Counted from the stretch's first letter, positions 7,230-38,400 are shown. The stretch: DNA of 43,633 nt from a virus (IMGVR_UViG_2563366881_000003); one strand, 5' to 3'. Translations and numbers: made by a program. The notes: generated by a model not told the origin, from the letters alone.

Positions 7230-7453
7230 TTTCGGTAGGCTTCTACGGCTTCACGAAACATCTTTTCATCGCCAATAAAAGTGGCGATAGTGAATTTAGT
7301 CTGGATAGCCATAAGTGTTTTATCCATTTTGGGGAACTCCTGGCTGATTAAGTACGTCGATGAGTCGTTTCCATCCGTCACGTAATTTACGTGTGATTCG
7401 CTCAAGTAAAGATTCGGAAGGGCAGCCAGCAACAGGCCACCCTGCAATGGCAT
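7214..7453 (-). CDS. Small hypothetical protein (79 aa, or 37 aa from internal ATG at 7327)
   Basis: ORF; internal ATG has a GGAG 9 nt upstream. Confidence 0.3.
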   Translation of the reverse strand: MPLQGGLLLAALPNLYLSESHVNYVTDGNDSSTYLISQEFPKMDKTLMAIQTKFTIATFIGDEKMFREAVEAYRKWRSK

Positions 7454-7541
7454 ATTGCATGGTGTGCTCCTTATTCATTTACACTTGAAATTGCTCCGTG
7501 TATTCACTCGTTGGAATGAATACACAGTGCTTATTCGCAGC

Positions 7542-8513: not shown

Positions 8514-9095
8514 ATGAACAACTCATGGTGGCAGGAACTAATGCATTTTTTCCTGCAAGGAATGACACTTAAACAGTTGATTCATATGCTAATCATCCTG
8601 ATCATATTGATTATTGTTATGCCGGTAAGCGTAAAAGAATGGATAAACCTGCATAATCCAGAAATCCTTCCTCATTACTGGATGTATTACATCCTGTTGT
8701 TTTGCGTTAGCTATGTGCTTAACGGCGTTGTTAATTCCGCTTATTACGCTGTGACTGAAAGAATTGAGGTATTCGCTGCTCAGAAGCGCAAATCTAAAGA
8801 AGAGAAATACGTGCAAGATTTGTTTGATTCGTTAACTCTTGGAGAAAGAGCGTATTTGGCACTCGCTGTAGTCGCTAATAACCAGCTACAAACGGAAAAG
8901 GGAAGCCCTGAAGCAATCTCATTGCTCGAAAAAGGGCTTCTTATTCGGATACCTTCTGCTACTGGATATCCTGAAATCGACCGTTTTGTTATCCCAGAAC
9001 GCTATAGAAATGAGTGCTACATTAGGTTTGCTGGGAAGAAAGACAGTCTTATGGATGAACTTATCGCTCAGGATAAGCACGGCAAAAACAAGTAA
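8514..9095 (+). CDS. SieB-like superinfection-exclusion membrane protein (candidate)
   Basis: 193 aa, two N-terminal TM helices plus soluble C-terminal domain; size, architecture and early-left location resemble SieB of lambda/P22; transcribed opposite to the leftward operon. Confidence 0.45.
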   Translation: MNNSWWQELMHFFLQGMTLKQLIHMLIILIILIIVMPVSVKEWINLHNPEILPHYWMYYILLFCVSYVLNGVVNSAYYAVTERIEVFAAQKRKSKEEKYVQDLFDSLTLGERAYLALAVVANNQLQTEKGSPEAISLLEKGLLIRIPSATGYPEIDRFVIPERYRNECYIRFAGKKDSLMDELIAQDKHGKNK

Positions 9096-9241
9096 TTAGC
9101 AAATTAATTTATCATCTCGCCGTCAGTTGTTTTGATTTCCGGTAGCCTGCCGCGTAAATGGCTACGTTTGGCAGGCACACAGCACCACCTTCAACTTCCT
9201 TCTAACGCGTTCCTGCAAGCGAAATGGCTCTTGAAACACGT

Positions 9242-9775
9242 TTACTGGCTCCGTCCATGATTTTCATGAAAGCCATATAGTGCATTGGCTTCTTTCCTTG
9301 CTTGTTTGGCATCATCTAAAAGTTTGAATGAGCCTAGGTATTTTCGTTTTCCATCCACAGTTATCGATGCAACATAAAACCCATGCTCTTTTCTTTCTTC
9401 AACACCTGTAACTCCAGTTGATGAAGATGATTTTAAAGGCATGTTTTTCATATTCTCTTTGAAAGAAACGCTTCTTAAATTGGAGATTCTGTTGTCATCC
9501 TTAACGCCGTTTATGTGATCAATCACATCAGGCCAGTAGCCATGCACGTAAAGCCATGCAAGTCTGTGAGACTTAAATTTTTTACCTCCAATATTTATTC
9601 TCAGATAACCCTTGTTGTCAGGTGAGCCAGCCTTTTTACCTGGATACTTCTTGTTCCACGTCAAGGCAGCTCTGTTATCCGCAAACAAATGCTTTGCTCT
9701 CGGCTTCCAATAAAAGTCACCACTCACAGGATTGTAATGAAGAATCTCCCTTACAGACACTTGAGTAAGATCCAC
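9242..9775 (-). CDS. HNH endonuclease with AP2-like DNA-binding domain (paralog 1)
   Basis: Motif HRLAWLYVHG...IDHINGVKDDNRISNLR, C-terminal GV(T/S)... AP2-like segment; paralogous to three other ORFs in the window. Confidence 0.8.
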   Translation of the reverse strand: MDLTQVSVREILHYNPVSGDFYWKPRAKHLFADNRAALTWNKKYPGKKAGSPDNKGYLRINIGGKKFKSHRLAWLYVHGYWPDVIDHINGVKDDNRISNLRSVSFKENMKNMPLKSSSSTGVTGVEERKEHGFYVASITVDGKRKYLGSFKLLDDAKQARKEANALYGFHENHGRSQ

Positions 9776-10017
9776 TTAAACCTCCTAACAAAAACACTTC
9801 AATAACCCTCCGGTTATGGAAATGTTCTTTTGTAGTGAGCAGCATTGCCGTTCATCCTGAACCCGCCGCGCTCCCGACGCATGGTTTAAAGACGCGCCGT
9901 TCGTCTATGGGCTTATGATGTACTTAAAGTTCATTAATGTAAAGTACAAATAGTACATTTTATGGGTATAAAAAGCTCACTACATCATAAGTTAGTGAAC
10001 TTTAAGGAAATTTATTT

Positions 10018-10725
10018 TTATCCGAATCGCTTGTAATCGATTGACTGCCTAATGAGGACTTTGGCTAGAATGTGAAGTTGCTCTTCTTCACCTTCTTCTA
10101 TGTACCATCGATCATAAGCGGCATTGTCAGAGATGACGGCAAGCCTGTTCTTTTGCATTTGCAGGCGCTTAACGTGCATTGTTTTCCCGTATACAAACAC
10201 ATAAATGCCATCGCCATCAAAATAGGTTATGGATACATCAACAAAGATCTCATCTCCCGGATTGATGGTTCCCTCCATGCTGTCACCGCGAACCGTGATG
10301 ACTTTTACGCTTTCCTGTGGCCTTCCATTAAATAAAATTCTTGCCTGCTCGGGCGTATATTCAATTGCTCTTATCTTTTCTATAAATTCATTGGAAACCA
10401 TGGTTCCTGGCCCGGCGCTCGCCTGAACATCCAATACATCAACACGATAAGAATCATTTGATCTTGATAGATGATTTACCGTGATACCGTCATAATCAGC
10501 ATAGCCATGCAGATATGCAGCAGTAGTTCCCAGCACCGAAGCCAGAGATTCCATCTTGTCTTTTCTTGGTATTGACTCCCCGTTGAACCATTTACTAATG
10601 GCTTTTGGTGTGACCTTAAGCCTGACAGCTAAATCAGCCTGCCTACCATGCAAAGGTAATCCCGCTTTATCACAGGCCAGCGCAAGCCTCTGCGAGAAAG
10701 TTTCACGCTCTTTCTGTTGAACCAT
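10018..10725 (-). CDS. cI: CI-type prophage repressor (HTH plus S24 LexA-like peptidase domain)
   Basis: C-terminal GDSMEGTINPGDEIFVD ... HVKRL (Ser/Lys dyad); start at MVQQKE (ATG 10725) lies inside an operator palindrome with no SD, consistent with a leaderless transcript. Confidence 0.8.
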   Translation of the reverse strand: MVQQKERETFSQRLALACDKAGLPLHGRQADLAVRLKVTPKAISKWFNGESIPRKDKMESLASVLGTTAAYLHGYADYDGITVNHLSRSNDSYRVDVLDVQASAGPGTMVSNEFIEKIRAIEYTPEQARILFNGRPQESVKVITVRGDSMEGTINPGDEIFVDVSITYFDGDGIYVFVYGKTMHVKRLQMQKNRLAVISDNAAYDRWYIEEGEEEQLHILAKVLIRQSIDYKRFG

Positions 10726-10733
10726 AAGTTCAA
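10717..10733. promoter_or_regulatory. Operator (OR3/OR2-like) palindrome TTGAACcataaGTTCAA overlapping the cI start codon
   Basis: 17-bp site with perfect 6-bp inverted half-sites; a second copy occurs 57 bp away. Confidence 0.6.
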
Positions 10734-10745
10734 CTATATTAGGTA

Positions 10746-10790
10746 TTGACTGTACTATCAGTTCCGTCATAATATGAACCATAAGTTCAC
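10746..10790 (+). promoter_or_regulatory. pR-like promoter (TTGACT-16/17-CATAAT) with OR1-like operator TGAACcataaGTTCA at 10775-10789
   Basis: Consensus-like sigma70 hexamers upstream of cro; operator palindrome overlaps the transcription start region. Confidence 0.6.
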
Positions 10791-10804
10791 CACAGGAGAG
10801 AAGC

Positions 10805-11035
10805 ATGAACGAAGTTACGTTTGGAGAAGTTATCAAATCCGTTCGAGTTTCTGTTGTGGCTGATGTTTGTGGACTTACGCCAAAAGCCATCTATAAGTGG
10901 CTTGAGCGTGGTTCTCTGCCGCGTACCGAGTTCACTGGTGAAACCGAATATGCGGATAAGATCGCCAAGGCATCAGGCGGCAAGTACTCAGCAGCACAGA
11001 TTCGCCGTATCGGTAAACAGCAGTTTGTTATGTAA
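10805..11035 (+). CDS. cro: Cro-like repressor
   Basis: 76-aa HTH-like protein divergent from cI, SD AGGAGAG upstream. Confidence 0.7.
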   Translation: MNEVTFGEVIKSVRVSVVADVCGLTPKAIYKWLERGSLPRTEFTGETEYADKIAKASGGKYSAAQIRRIGKQQFVM

Positions 11036-11156
11036 TAAAAATGTACTTTTAGTACCGAACGGCCCGGTATACGGTCGGGTGCCCGGCGTGGTCAAGGATG
11101 ACTGTCAATGGTGCACGATAAAAACCCAAATTATTTACCTATGGAGATAGTAAGAA

Positions 11157-11453
11157 ATGACACAAGCAAGTTACAGCAAGCCAACACAGCGAGAAATTGA
11201 TCGCGCTGAAACTGATTTACTCATCAACCTGTCAACGCTTACCCAGCGCGGTCTGGCAAAGATGATTGGCTGTCATGAATCGAAGATAAGCAGAACGGAC
11301 TGGAGATTTATTGCTTCGGTCTTGTGTGCTTTCGGAATGGCATCAGACATCAGTCCGATTAGCAGGGCTTTTAAGTATGCGCTTGATGAAATCACAAAGA
11401 AAAAATCCCCGGTGGCCGCCGGGGACTCTAAGCAAATTGATATGCAATTCTGA
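11157..11453 (+). CDS. cII: CII-like transcriptional activator
   Basis: C-terminus KKKSPVAAGDSKQIDMQF resembles recalled lambda CII C-terminus (KKRPAATERSEQIQMEF); HTH GLAKMIGCHESKISR. Confidence 0.8.
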   Translation: MTQASYSKPTQREIDRAETDLLINLSTLTQRGLAKMIGCHESKISRTDWRFIASVLCAFGMASDISPISRAFKYALDEITKKKSPVAAGDSKQIDMQF

Positions 11454-11478
11454 GGGAATTACTGGATCAATCCACAGG
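11398..11478 (-). ncRNA. oop-like antisense RNA (candidate)
   Basis: Minus-strand hairpin TCCCCGGcggccaCCGGGGA followed by T6 inside the 3-prime end of cII, with a CATAAT-like -10 about 77 nt upstream; mirrors lambda oop. Confidence 0.4.
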
Positions 11479-11485
11479 AGTCATT

Positions 11486-11647
11486 ATGACAAAACGTCGT
11501 AAGAAATACCAGGAAAAAGAAGAGATTCGACACCCTGATTCACCTGAGGGATTAGTGGTAGCCGCAGCAAATAACAGGGCGTTCGCAGAGCGCCTTGTTG
11601 GTGTTTACAGACTAGCCAAAGCAGGAGTGAAACATGGGCGTCGTTAA
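11486..11647 (+). CDS. Small basic protein, 53 aa, at the cII-O junction
   Basis: ATG with GGAG 7 nt upstream; translated by hand; absent from the 60-aa-minimum ORF track. Confidence 0.4.
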   Translation: MTKRRKKYQEKEEIRHPDSPEGLVVAAANNRAFAERLVGVYRLAKAGVKHGRR

Positions 11648-12464
11648 GTTAGCTGATTACAGGCCTCAACTGGAGGTCGTGGAGCATCGCGTGGCAGAAC
11701 TCGAAGATGGCTACACTCGGACTGCAAACACACTGTTAGAAGCCGCCATGCTTTCTGGACTTACTCTACATCAGTTACTGATTGTTATGGCTGTGTGGCG
11801 CAAGACATACGGTTACAACAAAAAAATAGATTGGATCGGAAACGAACAGTTCGCTGAACTCACTGGCATGGCACCAACCAAATGCTCTACCGCCAAAAAC
11901 GAGCTTATCAGAATGGGAGTTCTCATTCAGGTGGGGCGTCAAGTTGGTATGAATACAAACATTTCCGAGTGGAAAACGAAAGTTAACGGATTCGGTAAAA
12001 CATTTACTAATTCAGTAAAACAAACCTTCACTAAATCGGTAAAAAGCAATTTACCGAATCAGTCAAACACAAAAGACAATATACAAAAGACAATAAATAC
12101 AAATACCCCCTTACCCCCTAACGGGGGCGGCGATGGGAAGGTTAAACCTGAACGTCGCAAGGCAGAACGCATCGACTACGAATCCTTCCTGAACGCCTAC
12201 AACACCGAAGTCGGTGACAGACTGCCACACGCTGTTGCGGTCAACGAGAAACGCAAACGCCGCCTGAAGAAAATCATCCCGCAACTGAAAACGCCAAACG
12301 TGGACGGTTTCAGAGCGTATGTCAGGGCGTTTGTGCATCAGGCCAAGCCGTTTTACTTCGGAGACAACGACACGGGCTGGACGGCCGATTTTGATTACCT
12401 GTTGAGGGAAGATTCGTTAACGGGAGTACGGGAAGGGAAGTTTGCAGACAGGGGGATTGCATGA
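11634..12464 (+). CDS. Replication initiator, lambda O / P22 gp18-like
   Basis: N-terminal region resembles recalled lambda O (…[15 protein letters not shown]…WRKTYGYNK…); internal iteron/AT-rich origin. Confidence 0.8.
11995..12120 (+). repeat. Replication origin: iterons TC(G/A)GTAAAA at 12001, 12021 and 12045 plus AT-rich tract, inside the O-like gene
   Basis: Three direct repeats and one inverted partial copy followed by an A/T-rich stretch, as in ori-lambda. Confidence 0.6.
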
Positions 12465-13837
12465 GACAGGATATCGAAGCTAGCGTTATCGGTGGCCTGC
12501 TGATTGGTGGATTAACACCAACCGCCAGCGACGTTCTGGCAACGCTGGAGCCGGAAGCGTTTTCAATTCCGCTCTACCGGAAAGCCTTCGAGGTTATCCG
12601 CAAGCAGGCGCGAAACAGAAACCTAATCGACGCGCTGATGGTTGCCGAGGCGTGCGGAGAGGAGCATTTCACGTCAATCCTGATGACCAGCAAAAACTGC
12701 CCGAGTGCCGCAAACCTGAAGGGATATGCCGGAATGGTCGCGGATAACTATCACCGCCGTCTGGTGCTGGAAATCATGGATGAAATGCGTGAACCAATTC
12801 AGAGCGGAACCATCGACGCATCGAGTCAAGCGATGGATGAGCTTGTAAAGCGTCTCTCAGCCATCAGAAAGCCCCGTGGCGAGGTTAAACCTGTACGGTT
12901 AGGTGAAATCATCACTGACTACACTGACACGCTTGACAGGCGTCTGAGGAACGGAGAAGAGTCAGATACCCTGAAGACCGGAATCGAAGAACTTGATGCC
13001 ATCACCGGAGGGATGAACGCGGAAGACCTGGTGATAATCGCTGCTCGTCCTGGTATGGGGAAAACCGAGCTGGCGCTGAAGATTGCCGAAGGCGTGGCAA
13101 GTCGTGTTATTCCTGGTTCTGACGTCCGGCGCGGAGTATTGATTTTCTCGATGGAAATGAGCGCATTGCAGATTGCAGAGCGAAGCATTGCCAACGCCGG
13201 GAGGATGTCGGTTAGCGTGCTGCGAAATCCTGCATCGATGGATGACGAAGGCTGGGCACGTGTTGCTAACGGCATGAGTCAGCTTGCAGATTTGGATGTA
13301 TGGGTAGTCGATGCCTCGCGGTTATCGGTCGAAGAAATTCGCTCAATCGCAGAACGGCACAAACAGGAAAATCCAAACCTGTCACTCATCATGGCGGATT
13401 ATCTTGGCCTGATTGAGAAGCCGAAAGCAGATCGCAACGACCTCGCAATTGCTCACATCTCCGGAAGCCTGAAGGCGATGGCGAAAGACCTGAAAACACC
13501 GGTTATCTCCCTGAGTCAGCTTTCGCGCGATGTTGAGAAGCGACCAAATAAACGCCCGACAAACGCAGATTTGCGTGATTCAGGAAGCATTGAGCAGGAC
13601 GCAGACTCAATCATCATGCTCTATCGGGAAGCGGTATATGACGAGAACAGTAGCGCCGCGCCATTTGCTGAAATCATTGTGACGAAAAACCGTTTTGGCT
13701 CACTTGGTACGGTTTACCAGCGATTCTGTAACGGACACTTTGTTGCATGTGACCAGGATGAAGCCAGACAGATTTGCATAGCATCAAATGCACCTGCTTC
13801 GCGTGGCAGACGATATGCACAAGGGGCTGACGTATGA
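12461..13837 (+). CDS. Replicative DNA helicase, DnaB family (P22 gp12-like)
   Basis: 458 aa with Walker [13 protein letters not shown] and DnaB C-terminal motifs. Confidence 0.9.
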
Positions 13838-13909
13838 CCATCTACATCACTGAGCTTGTAACAGGCCTGCTGGTAATCGCAGGCCTTTTTATTTGGGGGA
13901 GGGTAAATC

Positions 13910-14116
13910 GTGGCTGAGTTAATTTTCTCTGCATTGAGGCTTCTCGGTGCTATGTGGATGGTGGCGACGTTCATTGTGGTTGTCGGAAGTTTTGTCCGGT
14001 TGGTAGGCGAAGGTAAAGACCTGGTGGGTGTGCTGTTCGGTAGCATTCTCCTGTGGGTGATTATCGGTGTTATGCCTGTCGCTGTAGCAAAAATGGCGTG
14101 GCGTTTTGTGAGTTGA
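13910..14116 (+). CDS. Small membrane protein (68 aa, GTG start)
   Basis: Two hydrophobic helices; ORF only. Confidence 0.4.
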   Translation: MAELIFSALRLLGAMWMVATFIVVVGSFVRLVGEGKDLVGVLFGSILLWVIIGVMPVAVAKMAWRFVS

Positions 14117-14133
14117 ACTGAGGGTAAGTATCG

Positions 14134-14415
14134 ATGGACGAATCAAGAAAGCAGTTTGAAAGCGTAATAGGCGGAAAATGCTGGTCTGTTCAGAGAACCG
14201 ATAGCGGGGATTATGTGCATGAAAGAGTTCATTTGATGTGGATGGCGTGGAGAGAGTCTCGCTCAGCTATCGAGATTGAATTGCCAGCAAAAAATGATAT
14301 CTCCAGCGATGACTACCCCATTCATGACCTGGTTGATTGGGATGATGGAAGAAACGCTGGAATTCAGGAATGTGCAGAAGCCATCCGCGCTGCTGGAATC
14401 AAAGTGAAGGAGTGA
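14134..14415 (+). CDS. Hypothetical nin-region protein, 93 aa
   Basis: ORF only. Confidence 0.45.
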   Translation: MDESRKQFESVIGGKCWSVQRTDSGDYVHERVHLMWMAWRESRSAIEIELPAKNDISSDDYPIHDLVDWDDGRNAGIQECAEAIRAAGIKVKE

Positions 14416-14417
14416 GC

Positions 14418-14603
14418 ATGAGTCGACGAAGTAGCTTTTTGGGGTTTGTAATATTCCTGTCCTGTACTGGTTACATCGTAATCTGGTCAATTTCGAACAT
14501 TGACCGTGGCGGGGAATATCTCATTGTAATGTTCTTTCCTTTGTTTCTTGGGTGGTACGCCGCAAGGTTGCTGGAAGAATGGGTTTACAGGCATAAAAAA
14601 TAA
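14418..14603 (+). CDS. Small membrane protein, 61 aa
   Basis: Internal Met MSRRSSFLGFVIFLSCTGYIVIW of ORF 14370..14603. Confidence 0.4.
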   Translation: MSRRSSFLGFVIFLSCTGYIVIWSISNIDRGGEYLIVMFFPLFLGWYAARLLEEWVYRHKK

Positions 14604-14614
14604 AGGAGTATTCA

Positions 14615-15025
14615 GTGAAGCAAACAATCTTCCTCAGAACTAAGCAACAACAGTAAGCCGCAATCAACGCCATCCTCGCAACACCACTCGATAAAGACAA
14701 GCCAGTCACCATCCGCATTACTGACTACAAGCGCAACCTTGACCAGAACGCAAAATTTCACGCGATGGTCGCAGATATCGCCAGGCAAGTTCAGTGGCGC
14801 GATAAATGGTTAAAACCAGAACAATGGAAGGTTTTGTTGATAAGCGGTCATGCAGTGGCAACAAAGCAGGAAGCTGATGTTTTGCCCGGGCTTGAAGGCG
14901 AATACGTCAACATTCGCGAAAGCAGCGCGCAGATGAGTGTGAAGCGTATGGCAAGTCTGATTGAGTACACGACAGCATGGGCTATTGGTCAGGGTGTCAG
15001 ATTTACCGACAGGAGGTACGAATGA
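14615..15025 (+). pseudogene. ninB: ninB (recombination protein NinB/Orf) interrupted by an in-frame TAA at 14654-14656
   Basis: GTG 14615 with AGGAG upstream encodes MKQTIFLRTKQQQ, then TAA, then the same frame continues AAINAILATPLDKDK...NLDQNAKFHAMVADIARQVQWRDKWL matching recalled lambda NinB across the stop; codons checked by hand. Confidence 0.7.
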
Positions 15026-15198
15026 GACGACAGCGACGAAGTTTCACCGACATCATCTGCGAAAACTGCAAATACCTTCCAACGAAACGCTCCAGAAATA
15101 AACGCAAGCCAATCCCAAAAGAATCTGACGTAAAAACCTTCAACTACACGGCTCACCTGTGGGATATCCGGTGGCTAAGACATCGTGCGAGGAAATGA
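15022..15198 (+). CDS. NinD/NinE-like small basic protein
   Basis: 58 aa [22 protein letters not shown]...; start overlaps ninB stop (ATGA). Confidence 0.55.
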
Positions 15199-15575
15199 CA
15201 ATGGATTATTCACAGTTAAGTGATTTTGAAATTAACTTAAAAGTCGCGCATATCGTGCTAGGAAAAAACAATTACGACTGGGATCCAGAAAAGAAAGAAG
15301 TTTACTTGGCTGGAATTGATGGTGGTGAGTTTTTGCCTTGCGGATATTTTGACCCATGTAATATGGCCGCTGACGCATATCCGATCATCACTGAAAACAA
15401 AATTAGCACCATGTGGATGACAGCGGAAAAAGAATGGTGCGCATGGTCAGGAGGTGATTTAGAGGAAGGTTGTTGGGAATGGGAAAATATTCCTGACTAC
15501 TGCTTCTGCGGTGAATCGCCTCTCCGCGCCGCCATGATTGTATTTCTCATGATGCAGGACGCCAATAATGCTTAG
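15195..15575 (+). CDS. Hypothetical nin-region protein, 126 aa
   Basis: Internal Met MTMDYSQ; start overlaps upstream stop (ATGA). Confidence 0.5.
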
Positions 15576-15744
15576 CCCATCCCAATCCCTTCAATACCAG
15601 AAAGAAAGCGTCGAGCGAGCTTTAACGTGCGCTAACTGCGGTCAGAAGCTGCATGTGCTGGAAGTTCACGTGTGCTCCGATTGCTGCGCAGAACTGATGA
15701 GCGATCCGAATAGCTCAATGTACGAGGAAGAAGACGATGAATGA
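15568..15744 (+). CDS. ninF: NinF-like protein
   Basis: 58 aa [30 protein letters not shown]... matches recalled lambda NinF; hand-translated. Confidence 0.65.
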   Translation: MLSPSQSLQYQKESVERALTCANCGQKLHVLEVHVCSDCCAELMSDPNSSMYEEEDDE

Positions 15745-16459
15745 GTTAATAAATGGCAATGCCATCAAAATGACAAGCATTGAAATCGCTGAGTTGGTTG
15801 GTAAGCGTCATGACAATGTGAAACGTACCATCGAAACGCTGGCTAAAAATGGTGTTATCCGGCTTCCTCAAATTGAGGTTTCCGAAAGAATCAATAACTT
15901 AGGGTTCAATGTTCAGTACGAGTATTACGTCTTCGAAGGCGAACAAGGAAAGCGAGACAGTATTGTCGTTGTAGCCCAGTTGTCGCCGGAATTCACCGCT
16001 CGTCTTGTTGACCGTTGGCGAGAGCTTGAAGAAGCTGCGGTTAATATCCCCAAAACGCTACCAGAAGCGTTGCGCCTTGCTGCTGATCTTGCTGAGCAGA
16101 AAATGCAACTGGAAAACCAGCTCGCAATTGCCGCACCTAAAGTTGAGTTTGCCGATCGCGTTGGCGAGGCCAGCGGAATTTTGATTGGAAACTTTGCAAA
16201 GGTTGTTGGAATTGGTCCAAACAAACTGTTTGCGTGGATGCGCGATCACAAAATCCTTATTGCTTCAGGTTCCCGGCGCAATGTGCCAATGCAGGAATAT
16301 ATGGATCGCGGCTATTTCACAGTGAAAGAAACAGCGGTCAACACAAATCACGGGATACAGATATCGTTCACCACAAAAATCACCGGGCGTGGTCAACAGT
16401 GGCTGACCAGAAAGCTGCTCGATAACGGAATGCTGAAAGTAACAGGGGAGGCTGCTTAA
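15737..16459 (+). CDS. Rha-family phage regulatory protein / antirepressor-like (KilAC-type C-terminal domain)
   Basis: N-terminal motif SIEIAELVGKRHDNVKRTIETL typical of Rha; 240 aa. Confidence 0.65.
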   Translation: MNELINGNAIKMTSIEIAELVGKRHDNVKRTIETLAKNGVIRLPQIEVSERINNLGFNVQYEYYVFEGEQGKRDSIVVVAQLSPEFTARLVDRWRELEEAAVNIPKTLPEALRLAADLAEQKMQLENQLAIAAPKVEFADRVGEASGILIGNFAKVVGIGPNKLFAWMRDHKILIASGSRRNVPMQEYMDRGYFTVKETAVNTNHGIQISFTTKITGRGQQWLTRKLLDNGMLKVTGEAA

Positions 16460-16749
16460 TGGCTAATCTACGCAAAGAAGCACGCGGCAGAGAATGCCAG
16501 GTACGTATTTACGGCGTATGCAATGGCAATCCTGAAACTACAGTTCTGGCACATTACCGGATGGCTGGAATTTGCGGAACGGGAATGAAGCCTGACGACC
16601 TGATCGGCGCATGGGCTTGTAGCGCGTGTCACGATGAAATCGACCGACGCACCTATAATCTCGACAACAAAGACGCCAGACTTTACCACCTCGAAGGCGT
16701 GATCAGGACGCAGGCGATACTGCTGAAGGAGGGGAAGATTAAGTCATGA
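16459..16749 (+). CDS. DUF1364 / YbcO-like putative zinc-binding nuclease
   Basis: 96 aa, motif ARGRECQVRIYGVCNGNPETTVLAH...CSACHDEIDRR recalled from DLP12 YbcO. Confidence 0.6.
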   Translation: MANLRKEARGRECQVRIYGVCNGNPETTVLAHYRMAGICGTGMKPDDLIGAWACSACHDEIDRRTYNLDNKDARLYHLEGVIRTQAILLKEGKIKS

Positions 16750-17270
16750 ACGGTAAAAGATATCCAACACAAAAAGAAATCAATGAATTGTATGAATATA
16801 ATAGCGAAACAGGTTTGTTTATATACAAGAGAAGAGAAAGTGTAAGAGAGTGCTGGAATTCAACATATGCCGGTAAGATTGCTGGTTCTATAGATGAAAA
16901 AGGATACGTTCGTATATCTGTAAATAAAAAAGTTTGTCGAGCTCATAGAATCGCATGGATATCCTTTTATGGAAGTGAACCTGATGGGGAAATTGACCAC
17001 ATAAATGGAGTTAAAAGCGATAACAGAATATGCAATTTGCGCGTTGTAGATGATAAACAGAACTCAAGGAACAGAAAAAAGCCTATTAATAATCGCTCTG
17101 GAGTAATGGGGGTTGCCTACTATAAGAAGAATAAAAAGTGGGGCGCATATATAAACAGTGATAATAAAAAGATATTTCTTGGATTATACGATGACATATC
17201 TCTAGCCGTTAATGCCAGAAAATTGGCGGAATCACGATTGGGGTATCACCATAATCATGGGAGAGGATAA
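16746..17270 (+). CDS. HNH endonuclease with AP2-like domain (paralog 2)
   Basis: HRIAWISFYG...IDHINGVKSDNRICNLR; inserted between the ybcO-like gene and rusA. Confidence 0.8.
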   Translation: MNGKRYPTQKEINELYEYNSETGLFIYKRRESVRECWNSTYAGKIAGSIDEKGYVRISVNKKVCRAHRIAWISFYGSEPDGEIDHINGVKSDNRICNLRVVDDKQNSRNRKKPINNRSGVMGVAYYKKNKKWGAYINSDNKKIFLGLYDDISLAVNARKLAESRLGYHHNHGRG

Positions 17271-17633
17271 ATGGCAGAATACAGATTCACACTTCCGTAC
17301 CCACCGTCGCTGAACACCTACTGGCGAAGACGGGGAAGCCAATACTACATCAGCGATAAAGGCCAGAAATACCGAAAAGACGTTCAGCAAATCATCCGCC
17401 AACTCAAGTTAGACATTTTCACCAAATCACGACTACGAATCAAAGTCATCGCAGACGTTCCAGACTCCCGCCGCCGCGACCTCGACAACATTCTTAAAGG
17501 TTTACTCGACCCCCTTATCCACGCCGGATTTGCGGAAGACGACGAGCAATTCGATGACATTCGCGTAATTCGTGGCGTGAAAGTACCAGGCGGAAGGCCT
17601 GGAATAAAAATCACCGAACTGGAGAACGTATGA
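17271..17633 (+). CDS. rusA: Holliday junction resolvase RusA
   Basis: 120 aa MAEYRFTLPYPPSLNTYWRRRG... with DLDN motif. Confidence 0.85.
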   Translation: MAEYRFTLPYPPSLNTYWRRRGSQYYISDKGQKYRKDVQQIIRQLKLDIFTKSRLRIKVIADVPDSRRRDLDNILKGLLDPLIHAGFAEDDEQFDDIRVIRGVKVPGGRPGIKITELENV

Positions 17634-17818
17634 ACGCCACAATTCAAACGATACCAGAGCTTCTTATCCAGACACGAGGCAATCAGACCGAAGTGGCGAG
17701 GATGCTTTCCTGCGCAAGAGGAACAGTGCTCAAGTACAACCGAGACAGCAAAGGTGAGCGTCACGTAATAGTTAACGGCGTCCTGATGGTCAAACAGGGC
17801 AAGAGGGGAAGACGATGA
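17630..17818 (+). CDS. ninH: NinH-like protein
   Basis: YGNQTEVARMLSCARGTVLKY matches recalled lambda NinH (YGNQTEVARRLKCSRGTVRKY). Confidence 0.75.
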   Translation: MNATIQTIPELLIQTRGNQTEVARMLSCARGTVLKYNRDSKGERHVIVNGVLMVKQGKRGRR

Positions 17819-27546: not shown

Positions 27547-27557
27547 GGAAAAGATAA

Positions 27558-28829
27558 ATGCCTAACAATCTCGATAGTAACGTCAGTCAAATCGTTCTGA
27601 AAAAATTCCTTCCGGGTTTTATGTCAGATTTAGTTCTGGCGAAAACCGTAGACCGTCAGTTGCTGGCAGGTGAAATCAACTCCAGCACTGGCGATAGCGT
27701 TAGCTTTAAACGTCCGCATCAATTCTCATCCCTCCGTACTCCCACTGGTGATATTTCAGGGCAAAATAAAAACAACCTGATATCAGGTAAAGCTACGGGG
27801 CGTGTAGGTAACTACATCACTGTTGCTGTTGAATATCAGCAACTGGAGGAAGCGATCAAGCTTAACCAACTGGAAGAAATTCTCGCGCCTGTTCGCCAGC
27901 GAATCGTTACCGACCTTGAAACAGAGCTTGCTCACTTCATGATGAATAACGGTGCGTTGTCACTTGGTAGCCCAAATACTCCAATCACCAAATGGTCTGA
28001 TGTTGCGCAGACGGCATCTTTCCTGAAAGACCTCGGCGTTAATGAAGGTGAAAACTATGCTGTAATGGATCCATGGTCTGCACAGCGACTTGCTGATGCG
28101 CAGACTGGTTTGCACGCTTCAGATCAATTGGTTCGTACTGCATGGGAGAATGCGCAGATCCCAACCAATTTTGGCGGCATTCGCGCACTGATGTCTAATG
28201 GGCTTGCCTCTCGTACGCAGGGGGCATTTGGCGGAACACTGACAGTCAAAACACAGCCAACTGTTACCTATAACGCAGTTAAAGACTCATACCAGTTCAC
28301 TGTAACATTGACCGGAGCGACAACCAGCGTTACAGGTTTCCTGAAAGCTGGTGATCAGGTTAAATTCACCAATACCTACTGGCTGCAACAGCAGACCAAA
28401 CAGGCGTTGTATAACGGAGCCACACCAATTAGCTTCACTGCAACGGTTACTGCTGATGCTGATTCAGACAGCAGTGGCGATGTGACGGTTACGCTTTCTG
28501 GTGTTCCGATTTATGACACTACAAACCCGCAGTACAACTCTGTAAGTCGTCAGGTAGCGGCAGGCGATGCCGTATCTGTAGTAGGCACTGCTAGCCAGAC
28601 AATGAAGCCAAACCTGTTCTATAACAAGTTCTTCTGTGGACTTGGCTCTATCCCACTGCCGAAACTGCACAGTATTGATTCTGCTGTTGCAACATATGAA
28701 GGTTTCTCCATCCGCGTACATAAATACGCAGATGGCGATGCCAACGTGCAAAAAATGCGCTTCGACTTACTGCCTGCATATGTGTGCTTTAACCCTCACA
28801 TGGGCGGTCAGTTCTTCGGTCAACCTTAG
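27558..28829 (+). CDS. Major capsid (coat) protein
   Basis: 423 aa at the coat position of a P22-like head module. Confidence 0.65.
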   Translation: MPNNLDSNVSQIVLKKFLPGFMSDLVLAKTVDRQLLAGEINSSTGDSVSFKRPHQFSSLRTPTGDISGQNKNNLISGKATGRVGNYITVAVEYQQLEEAIKLNQLEEILAPVRQRIVTDLETELAHFMMNNGALSLGSPNTPITKWSDVAQTASFLKDLGVNEGENYAVMDPWSAQRLADAQTGLHASDQLVRTAWENAQIPTNFGGIRALMSNGLASRTQGAFGGTLTVKTQPTVTYNAVKDSYQFTVTLTGATTSVTGFLKAGDQVKFTNTYWLQQQTKQALYNGATPISFTATVTADADSDSSGDVTVTLSGVPIYDTTNPQYNSVSRQVAAGDAVSVVGTASQTMKPNLFYNKFFCGLGSIPLPKLHSIDSAVATYEGFSIRVHKYADGDANVQKMRFDLLPAYVCFNPHMGGQFFGQP

Positions 28830-28836
28830 TGGAATG

Positions 28837-28858
28837 GCGGGGGTTACCCCGCCTTTTT
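28837..28858. terminator. Bidirectional hairpin terminator between coat gene and the minus-strand HNH gene
   Basis: GGCGGGGG-ttac-CCCCGCC followed by T5. Confidence 0.6.
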
Positions 28859-29350
28859 CTTGATTATTTCGCAGCAAGCATCGAATTTGTTATCGAAATA
28901 TCCCAGATGGATTGCTTTTCCGTTAGCAAATGATTTGGCGCGCCATTTGTACACGTTTTTGACCTTCACATAGTAAAGGCCAGCAATGCCGTATTTGTTA
29001 TTTTTATAAATCGAGGTTCCTTTAACTCGGTTAAGTTGATTTTGGCGACTGCTAACGATTCGCAGATTAGAGATCCTGTTATCAAGTGGGTTTCCGTTGA
29101 TGTGGTCGATTATCCCCTCAGGGTGCTCTCGATAGAAAAGCAGCCAAGCGATTCTGTGCGCCTGGTAATGCACCTTCTTGTACTGAACTTTCAGTCGGGT
29201 GTAATTGTTGCCTGCCTTGTGTTCGAAGGTGGCTACCTTACCTTTTGTCAGGTGCCTGACAGATGCGTTTATCTTGTACTTTATCTCTCCCGTGTCTGGA
29301 GAGTATTCAAACATTTCATCAGCTTGCTCAAAGGTAATCATGTTATTCAC
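28844..29350 (-). CDS. HNH endonuclease with AP2-like domain (paralog 4), antisense within the head operon
   Basis: HRIAWLLFYR...IDHINGNPLDNRISNLR. Confidence 0.8.
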   Translation of the reverse strand: MNNMITFEQADEMFEYSPDTGEIKYKINASVRHLTKGKVATFEHKAGNNYTRLKVQYKKVHYQAHRIAWLLFYREHPEGIIDHINGNPLDNRISNLRIVSSRQNQLNRVKGTSIYKNNKYGIAGLYYVKVKNVYKWRAKSFANGKAIHLGYFDNKFDACCEIIKKKAG

Positions 29351-29395
29351 CGAATGACAAAGGAACCTCCCTCATTATATATCAATGGTGATTTT

Positions 29396-29587
29396 ATGTC
29401 AGATAACAGAATGAGTATTTTCCTTGCCGCAGATAACGAATCCGGGCATGTACAGGCCGTTATCACAGAAAAAGACTTCCAGTTTTTCGAAAAGTTGGGC
29501 TTTGTTGCCTCAGTTGATGAATTGAAACCGACCAGTAAGCGAGGTCGTAAGGCGGCAGACAATGGCAACAGTACTGACAAAGGGTGA
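29396..29587 (+). CDS. Small hypothetical protein, 63 aa
   Basis: Internal Met of ORF 29036..29587 downstream of the HNH gene start. Confidence 0.35.
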   Translation: MSDNRMSIFLAADNESGHVQAVITEKDFQFFEKLGFVASVDELKPTSKRGRKAADNGNSTDKG

Positions 29588-38323: not shown

Positions 38324-38324
38324 A

Positions 38325-38400
38325 GTTGAAGCCCCAACTGCGGGAACAGTCAGGGCTTCTGTTGTCAGTAAATCCGTGGAGAAAAACCAACATGAATAGT
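38325..38400 (-). ncRNA. sar-like antisense RNA covering the ant ribosome-binding region (candidate)
   Basis: Arc-ant intercistronic hairpin GAAGCCC...GGGCTTC at 38330-38361; P22 has sar here. Confidence 0.35.

Follow-up and report, generated by a model that had tools for sequence, protein, structure and literature searches.

Four diverged HNN-AP2 homing-type endonuclease genes at four sites of one lambdoid E. coli prophage

Why does a single lambdoid prophage hold four genes for free-standing endonucleases of one family, and by what route did they arrive? The question is raised by a 43,633-nt stretch of viral DNA (IMGVR_UViG_2563366881_000003; the whole stretch is called the window below), which matches part of contig KB732444.1 (assembly GCA_000351005.1) at 100% identity and belongs to a mosaic E. 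coli prophage. An earlier account of the window, made without database searches (the sequence-only reading), described four diverged HNH-AP2 endonuclease paralogs and suggested repeated invasion or a retained function. Four intact, full-length open reading frames (ORFs), HNH-1 to HNH-4, were recovered at the same positions and on the same strands from a six-frame ORF list and by direct translation. The best explanation, and a very probable one, is that they are four independently acquired homing-type HNN-AP2 genes, each in a compact cassette beside a conserved lambdoid element.

Positions 9242..9775, minus strand: HNH-1 gene, 177 amino acids (aa), GTG start after AGGAGG; HNH_3 E 2.7e-15
Positions 16746..17270, plus strand: HNH-2 gene, 174 aa, in ATGA overlap with the stop codon of the DUF1364/YbcO gene
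Positions 18528..19040, plus strand: HNH-3 gene, 170 aa, HNH_3 and AP2 domains by Pfam
Positions 28844..29341, minus strand: HNH-4 gene, 165 aa from ATG 29341, antisense to the late operon, after the coat gene

Four intact members of one nuclease family

The four proteins can be aligned over their whole length, AP2-like C-terminal segment included, and are 32–45% identical in pairwise BLASTP comparisons (E 1e-16 to 1e-40), in keeping with their description as diverged paralogs. The columns H-R-x-A-W, I-D-H-I-N and D-N-R-I-x-N-L-R, plus two more Asn, are invariant in all four, as are D85, H86, N98 and N107 (HNH-1 numbering); D79, H80, N92 and N104 (HNH-4 numbering) are invariant over 33 homologues. 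The core motif given earlier needs one correction: IDHIN and DNRI are common to the four, but HNH-3 reads IDHINR, not IDHING. All four proteins match Pfam HNH_3 (PF13392; E 1e-15 to 2e-18, 56–66 bits against a cut-off of 24.8 bits) and the PHROG family phrog_99 'HNH endonuclease' (E 1e-47 to 1e-73), and the HNH motif can be aligned by sequence to I-HmuI; with the motif intact in every copy, the alignment bears out their assignment to the homing-type endonucleases. Exactly four family members, and no degenerate fifth copy, were found by tblastn of the four proteins across the whole window. All four genes are AT-rich (G+C content 36–43% versus 46.6% for the window).

The proposed AP2-like C-terminus held in part. 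The segment aligns in all four proteins, but the Pfam AP2 threshold (PF00847, gathering score 33.3 bits) was passed by HNH-3 only (35.1 bits), which also matched the AP2 repeats of plant WRI1 (E 2e-6); the other three fell below it. Precomputed PF00847 matches are present in many homologues. HNH-4, the sole protein modelled (AlphaFold on 33 homologues; predicted local distance difference test, pLDDT, 87), had one significant PDB match, I-HmuI (1U3E; E 3.7e-4, probability 1.00, 162 columns). Its modelled C-terminus consists of three strands (E122-127, E130-139 and E142-149) and a helix (H152-164) and superposes locally on the TEM1 AP2 domain 7ET5 (root-mean-square deviation 2.0 Å over 40 residues, probability 0.87, E-value not significant), which supports an AP2-like C-terminus for HNH-4 at the level of predicted fold. 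Judged by sequence, the four genes encode free-standing homing-type endonucleases of the I-HmuI-like 'HNN-AP2' class, with a predicted HNH_3 His-Me finger nuclease and AP2-type DNA-binding domain.

In its N-terminal sheet, ββα-metal core, C-terminal DNA-binding domain and elongated shape, the HNH-4 model resembles I-HmuI. The latter, however, is encoded in an SPO1 intron, ends in a helix-turn-helix and nicks one strand, whereas the window proteins are free-standing with an AP2-type end. The HNN-AP2 proteins of Xanthomonas phages are 40–45% identical to the window proteins by tblastn, with the same domain pair and boxes (HRLAWL, D-H, DNR, NLR, EN) and no Cys dyads.

The complete HNH_3 catalytic core in all four proteins also bears on whether they might be DNA-binding regulators and not nucleases, the AP2 domain binding or silencing DNA in the manner of CapR-AP2 'CasPR' anti-CRISPR repressors or plant AP2 factors. 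Co-option of AP2 domains derived from homing endonucleases as sequence-specific repressors is documented (bioRxiv 10.64898/2026.02.23.707548; PMC10448857). Pfam found no CapR domain in any of the four, however, and the genes lie outside anti-defence gene clusters, and we consider a purely regulatory role very improbable.

HK97 gp74 is also an HNH-superfamily protein of a lambdoid phage, and in HK97-like phages HNH proteins are required for cos cleavage; the window proteins might likewise be associated with packaging and aid terminase cutting. Gp74 belongs, however, to another subfamily, of small proteins, and is fixed beside terminase with a packaging role, unlike the HNH_3/I-HmuI-like proteins with AP2 described here. 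None of the four genes adjoins the terminase genes (22688–24519), and the virion genes are of the P22-like Sf6/HK620/CUS-3 type with headful packaging. Most close relatives with identical packaging genes are without all four, and the viable phages Sf6 and HK620 lack them. A packaging role can be given next to no credence.

Occupied and empty alleles at the four sites

Comparison of junctions with relatives revealed presence/absence polymorphism at all four sites: the cassettes (539–704 bp) are missing from close relatives at each, and none of the genes is fixed at its site in all relatives. The neighbourhoods named in the sequence-only reading (beside pL, between ybcO and rusA, at the late terminator, and antisense between coat and gp4) are right in outline, but two of the supposed intergenic slots, those of HNH-1 and HNH-2, are not clean gaps.

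Positions 16753..17291, plus strand: HNH-2 cassette, 539 bp in place of 14 bp of the empty allele; junctions versus LF82, HK022 and HK629

In the empty alleles the YbcO/DUF1364 stop codon overlaps the rusA start (ATGA), and in the window the same ATG-AAC-G opens HNH-2, which has taken over the start codon and ribosome-binding site of rusA. The latter restarts one base past the HNH-2 stop, with a new Shine-Dalgarno sequence within the last HNH-2 codons. Its 5′ end is recoded (17271–17291, codons 1–7), with 11–12 mismatches in the first 21 nt against 0–3 per 30 bp in the rest, giving the N-terminus MAEYRFT in the occupied versus MNEYQFV in the empty allele. The empty ybcO-rusA junction of LF82 and HK022 contains GATTAAGTCATGAACGAATATCAGTTTGTGCTTCC, and the empty rusA site is GC-rich (CCCGCCGTCGG). 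Of the 1,535 E. coli genomes matching the region, 29 have the full HNH-2 context; no relatives of the protein fall between 98% and 56% identity, the nearest non-identical one being at most 56% identical. The upstream DUF1364/YbcO gene (16459–16749, plus strand) is itself an 'HNH endonuclease' in PHROG 131, placing HNH-2 between two nuclease-type genes, YbcO and RusA.

Positions 18341..19044, plus strand: HNH-3 cassette, 704 bp in place of 6 bp, versus empty alleles with the same Q gene (L002 and L006)
Positions 18311-18340, plus strand: pR′ late promoter, overlapping the Q stop codon (TTGACA 18311 … CATAAT 18340)
Positions 18381-18408, plus strand: terminator brought by the HNH-3 cassette (terminator scan; hairpin fold z = -4.2)
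Positions 19047..19090, plus strand: original late-leader terminator, kept 3′ of HNH-3 and 100% conserved in empty alleles (-20.2 kcal/mol, z = -4.4, then a U6 run)

The left edge of the HNH-3 cassette is the exact end of the pR′ -10 hexamer, and the cassette leader carries a -10-like TATGCT at a spacing equal to that of TAAGCT in the empty-allele leader. The earlier placing of the gene just after the late terminator was half right, as it lies between two terminators downstream of pR′ and is therefore expected to be expressed only by Q-modified polymerase. The empty L002-type pR′ leader contains CATAATTAGAGGGTAAGCTGCCG. HNH-3 is 100% identical to gp62 of HK629, a viable, plaque-forming lambdoid phage, where it has the same Q/terminator/HNH/holin context, and it is carried by at least 34 E. 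coli genomes. A 60-aa ORF (18349–18531) was considered as part of the HNH-3 unit and rejected as probably spurious; it spans the strong terminator hairpin and is uncalled in public annotations. The stretch from the late-leader terminator to the holin gene (19090–19383) varies among relatives: L002 and L006 carry a different, apparently tRNA-like, 158-bp segment, and in several E. coli prophages the stretch between Q and holin is annotated with tRNA-Thr and tRNA-Asn. No tRNA was found in the Q-holin gap of the window by tRNA scan.

Positions 28821..29410, minus strand: HNH-4 cassette, 590 bp in place of 60 bp; junctions versus L001, ET734, LF82, Sf6 and HK620
Positions 28836-28853: GC hairpin terminator of the HNH-4 cassette (z = -3.6), with the HNH-4 stop codon in its loop
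Positions 29374..29402, minus strand: predicted sigma-70-type HNH-4 promoter inside the cassette (CTGACA-17-TATAAT, 11/12 consensus matches)

The 60 bp replaced by the HNH-4 cassette comprise the last coat codons, the coat terminator and the first codons of an hkbT/Sf6-gene-6-like ORF, which lies at 29396–29587 in the window; the coat C-terminus is changed from G-N-P* to G-Q-P*. The likely start of HNH-4 is ATG 29341, as in public assemblies, with GTG 29350 as an alternative. The empty coat-gene 6 junction of Sf6 and HK620 contains GGTAATCCGTAATAACAAGGGGCTTACGCCCCTTTTATG. The cassette is absent from all 249 complete E. coli genomes and all 12 phage records having both flanks, and HNH-4 was found in none of 5,426 complete E. 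coli genomes. The exact protein is present in 45 assembly blocks, always in the order coat|HNH|hkbT|gp4, with differing Q, tailspike and ejection-protein modules. Four relatives of the same length are 60–70% identical (P0002–P0005). Among the relatives with context, P0005 in L030 lies antisense directly after a coat gene, as probably do the one in L031 and P0003 in L033. The L030 coat gene is of P22 type and only ~63% identical in DNA, yet the stop codon of its HNH-4 relative is again in the terminator loop, and a promoter-like TTGCAA-17-TGATAGATT, read from the sequence, is found at the equivalent place. The HNH-4 lineage has thus long been faithful to the coat-gene site.

Positions 9116..9835, minus strand: HNH-1 module common to prophages (leader, HNH-1 and N-family 3′ remnant), by homology with relatives
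Positions 9115-9240, minus strand: 3′ remnant (42 codons) of an N-family antiterminator gene, immediately following the HNH-1 stop and out of frame with HNH-1
Positions 9836..9908, minus strand: putL antiterminator RNA (+1 to +73), 73 nt identical to HK022 putL
Positions 9915-9943, minus strand: pL promoter, with its hexamers
Positions 11056-11117, plus strand: putR-like copy, by likeness to putR

HNH-1 lies at the edge of an immunity and early-regulation region (9833–11495) that shares 99.2% identity with HK022 and contains cI, cro, cII and both put RNAs. The minimum free energy fold of the putL region gave no signal by itself (z = -0.03), and putL was identified because it is identical to the published HK022 putL; the stretch fits the published cryo-electron microscopy numbering (A3-U19 duplex, U28, U68, and C72 as last paired base; PMC9378689). 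HNH-1 is the first gene transcribed from pL, and its cassette junction falls at putL +74 to +77, i.e. 1–4 nt beyond putL. The HNH-1-bearing prophage L010 matches the window from 9116 rightwards, HK022 and the HNH-less L012 (same repressor) only from 9833.

Instead of occupying a gap, HNH-1 has displaced the 5′ part of an N-family gene. What is left of that gene, the remnant, matches the C-terminus of SEN22 N at 76% identity, is labelled 'N peptide, missing N-terminus' in RefSeq relatives, and accompanies HNH-1 in all carriers examined; in a put-type prophage of E. coli MBT-5 (L035), the leader is the same but HNH-1 is missing, and of the remnant only the final 15 codons are present. Contents of the post-putL slot vary: nun in HK022, a 148-aa ORF in L012, HNH-1 here. 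Sequence of putL type was found in 37 of 5,426 E. coli genomes, 8 of which have the HNH-1 junction. Public assemblies contain the exact HNH-1 protein in 257 blocks; its neighbour is always a cI-type repressor, of at least two types, and the early-left genes vary. Since putL and putR are intact and immunity is of HK022 type, N protein is not needed, and the prophage is a put-dependent, N-less, podovirus-type element using RNA-mediated antitermination. The idea that HNH-1 killed N and left the prophage defective was ruled out: the region is 99.2% HK022-like, putL and putR are intact and HK022-type phages need no N. HNH-1 presumably once landed in an N gene, with the result surviving only behind putL, where N is dispensable.

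Origin, spread and possible roles

No direct or inverted repeats of ≥6 bp were found at the ends of any of the four cassettes, and there is no target-site duplication. Two routes of origin were ruled out: transposon insertion by the lack of target-site duplications and inverted repeats, and intragenomic duplication by the 32–45% protein identity, the limitation of DNA likeness to ~60-bp motif stretches and the closer relatives that each gene has outside this genome. The four genes are apparently independent acquisitions, not duplications, and the repeated invasion proposed in the sequence-only reading is supported on the same grounds.

The genes are found in mosaic backgrounds: prophages encoding the exact HNH-4 or HNH-1 protein vary in their Q, tailspike, repressor and early-left modules, and HNH-3 is carried by the siphovirus HK629. 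By analogy with characterised relatives, we infer nuclease activity, target sites, timing of expression and homing itself along the following lines. Where an occupied and an empty allele meet in one cell, the latter would be nicked or cut by the enzyme close to the point of insertion, and recombinational repair from the occupied allele would copy the cassette together with nearby markers. The occupied allele would be protected where insertion and recoded junction bases destroy the target site. The extent of junction change differs by site: 11–12 of 21 nt are recoded at HNH-2 and 60 bp replaced at HNH-4, while only 6 bp are replaced, with the insertion, at HNH-3. The rusA recoding and the coat, terminator and hkbT changes are as expected for self-immunity. 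Expression would be immediate-early and antiterminated for HNH-1, right after pL-putL; delayed-early for HNH-2, translationally coupled within the nin operon; Q-dependent and late for HNH-3; and possibly constitutive, lysogen included, for the antisense HNH-4 with its own promoter. Expression of neighbouring genes is apparently preserved, as HNH-2 gives rusA a new Shine-Dalgarno sequence and the leader supplied with HNH-3 has a -10-like TAWGCT at the original spacing.

In mechanism the four genes would resemble the free-standing seg/mob genes of T4-like phages and the IPA-HNH genes of ICP1 (PMC10448857), in which an intergenic gene cuts the allele lacking it, close to the insertion site, and spreads with flanking markers. 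These genes mark boundaries of genetic exchange, and HNH-AP2 homing endonuclease genes sit at recombination boundaries in ICP1 (PMC10448857). The seg enzymes are of GIY-YIG type, however, IPA-HNH is too diverged for Pfam HNH_3, and neither system is in a temperate lambdoid phage.

Several observations weigh against homing as the route of spread or against the assignment itself. HNH-1, HNH-2 and HNH-4 gave no AP2 (PF00847) match at E ≤ 0.01. The HNH-1 module holds a truncated N-family gene and begins and ends at ordinary lambdoid module boundaries; its distribution is accounted for equally well by plain mosaic recombination and by homing. No co-conversion tract is visible around HNH-4, a result made uninformative by the 99–100% identity from portal to gp4 in carriers and LF82. 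The target sites are predictions from the junctions. In Xanthomonas oryzae phages, no conserved flanks of HNN-AP2 genes were found and sequence-independent transmission was suggested (Lee et al. 2007, PMC2248197). Finally, clonal oversampling of E. coli genomes may have contributed to the high counts of identical proteins.

Some of these points would also fit inert passengers, i.e. past invaders, now inactive or irrelevant, that spread by ordinary homologous or illegitimate lambdoid recombination only. The gene-boundary edges and dead N fragment of the HNH-1 module and the invisible co-conversion signature around HNH-4 agree with this, as does the progressive degeneration of such genes after fixation described by Lee et al. 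(PMC2248197). Yet all four ORFs are full-length, with every catalytic and structural motif residue intact, and the window is without degenerate copies; identical proteins recur in very different mosaic backgrounds, the junctions keep neighbouring genes expressed, and HNH-3 is carried by the viable phage HK629. We therefore regard inert passengers as improbable.

Alternatively, the genes could have been domesticated for competition or exclusion, damaging superinfecting or co-induced relatives with empty sites, with marker or superinfection exclusion as the outcome and a gain for prophage and host; HNH-4 would act from the lysogen and HNH-1 would fill the slot of the HK022 exclusion gene nun. 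The self-contained, moron-like HNH-4 with its near-consensus predicted promoter, the intactness of its lineage at the site over ~40% protein divergence, the post-putL position behaving as a variable accessory slot, and sieB next door all agree with this. Goodrich-Blair and Shub are said to have found in 1996 that I-HmuI and I-HmuII of SPO1 and SP82 favour flanking markers in mixed infection. On the other hand, PADLOC gave only generic 'homing endonuclease' models for the region and no defence-system context (NCBIfam gave nothing), and the low site occupancy (0–2% at three sites, 8/37 at the put site) fits selfish gain and loss better than strongly beneficial genes. Domestication of this kind is compatible with independently acquired homing genes, not exclusive of them, and is a possibility to be held tentatively.

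An extension of exclusion, to be regarded as speculative, would have the four nucleases act jointly against related phages in a staggered series (immediate from pL-putL, delayed-early from nin, late under Q, and from the lysogen promoter). Their targets, on a conjecture that we consider unlikely, would be the putL junction, rusA start, pR′ leader and coat terminator, which relatives could hardly change. It is similarly doubtful that superinfecting or co-induced relatives would be cut and then excluded or converted, with HNH-1 functionally replacing nun.

Taking the genes as independently acquired homing-type elements, how exceptional is a set of four? All four together were found in none of the 5,426 complete E. 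coli genomes (none has HNH-4), and pairs occur elsewhere (HNH-2 and HNH-3 in GPEC172, HNH-1 and HNH-3 in NRZ14408). If the sites are independent, a rough multiplication of their measured frequencies makes the four-fold set vanishingly rare. With a profile from the four proteins, HK022 has one family member, HK629 two, and several HNH-1-bearing prophages two or three. Another lambdoid prophage fragment, L029 (GCA_008484285.1, AAKOCH010000005.1), has four HNH_3-type ORFs in 20.5 kb, three full-length and one weak HNH-core match that is NUMOD4-HNH_3 in public gene calls. At L029 1–11531, HNH-1, two more phrog_99-type genes and the NUMOD4-HNH_3 gene lie within ~11.5 kb, and Pfam finds three HNH_3 genes in L021. 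Lambdoid prophages with several endonuclease genes seem to be concentrated among the put-type carriers of HNH-1.

The members in HK629 (gp36) and HK022 (gene 57) lie at other slots, and these phages hold one or two copies versus four in the window. The P22-like Salmonella phage SEN22 (PMC5261728) has one full-length member antisense between terminase and portal and, in the nin region, a more distant HNH endonuclease matching the profile weakly over the HNH core only (E 8e-12); its authors regarded its homing endonuclease genes as mobile-element insertions (PMC5261728). SEN22 differs from the window in insertion sites, lineages and copy number (two versus four). Across the lambdoid phages examined, HNH_3-type genes use at least eight different slots.

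The Xanthomonas oryzae phages Xp10, OP1 and Xop411 have 6–8 free-standing HNN-AP2 genes per genome (Lee et al. 2007, PMC2248197). As in the window, there are several diverged, dispersed copies with presence/absence differences between relatives. Those phages are lytic siphoviruses, however, and their 6–8 copies include degenerate ones, while the window is a temperate P22-like prophage with HK022 immunity and four intact copies, whose junctions are resolved to single bases by comparison with empty alleles. The earlier description as unusual holds for the exact four-fold set and was overstated otherwise, given the Xanthomonas phages and L029: four copies are rare as an exact combination, and high but not unique as a phenomenon.

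Novelty is modest, as this kind of element has long been known and these are new members whose interpretation is partly supported. Only passing annotations were found in the literature on P22-like and lambdoid members of this family, and no functional study of the HK629 or HK022 genes was found. The value of the locus lies in one temperate phage with four diverged homing-type genes, each with occupied and empty alleles at base resolution and each plugged into a different lambdoid circuit (putL, nin translational coupling, the pR′/Q leader, an autonomous antisense unit). It yields predicted target sequences for four HNN-AP2 enzymes and, in E. coli with its HK620, Sf6 and HK022 relatives, a tractable system for homing- or exclusion-driven mosaicism in temperate phages, a process studied mostly in lytic phages. 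If the enzymes are inactive, the result is routine annotation only.

Neighbouring features of the prophage

Directly next to three of the four cassettes lie GC-rich structured elements: putL, the terminators of the late leader, and the coat terminator. A preference of AP2 domains for GC-rich motifs has been reported (PMC10448857); the GC-rich neighbourhood could hint at target recognition or be coincidence. Rfam and tRNA scans gave nothing associated with the four cassettes.

Positions 8514-9095, plus strand: sieB-family superinfection-exclusion gene (phrog_1301, E 6e-122), in the pL operon region on the strand opposite to pL transcription
Positions 7415-7473, minus strand: lambda cIII thermoregulator element (Rfam, 88 bits)
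Positions 38324-38391, minus strand: P22 sar antisense RNA of the immI region (Rfam, 92 bits)
Positions 21069-21548, plus strand: 159-aa gene between the lysis genes and terminase

The last of these has a precomputed Pfam Tad2-like match (PF11195, listed for the relative L003) and may encode an anti-Thoeris sponge.

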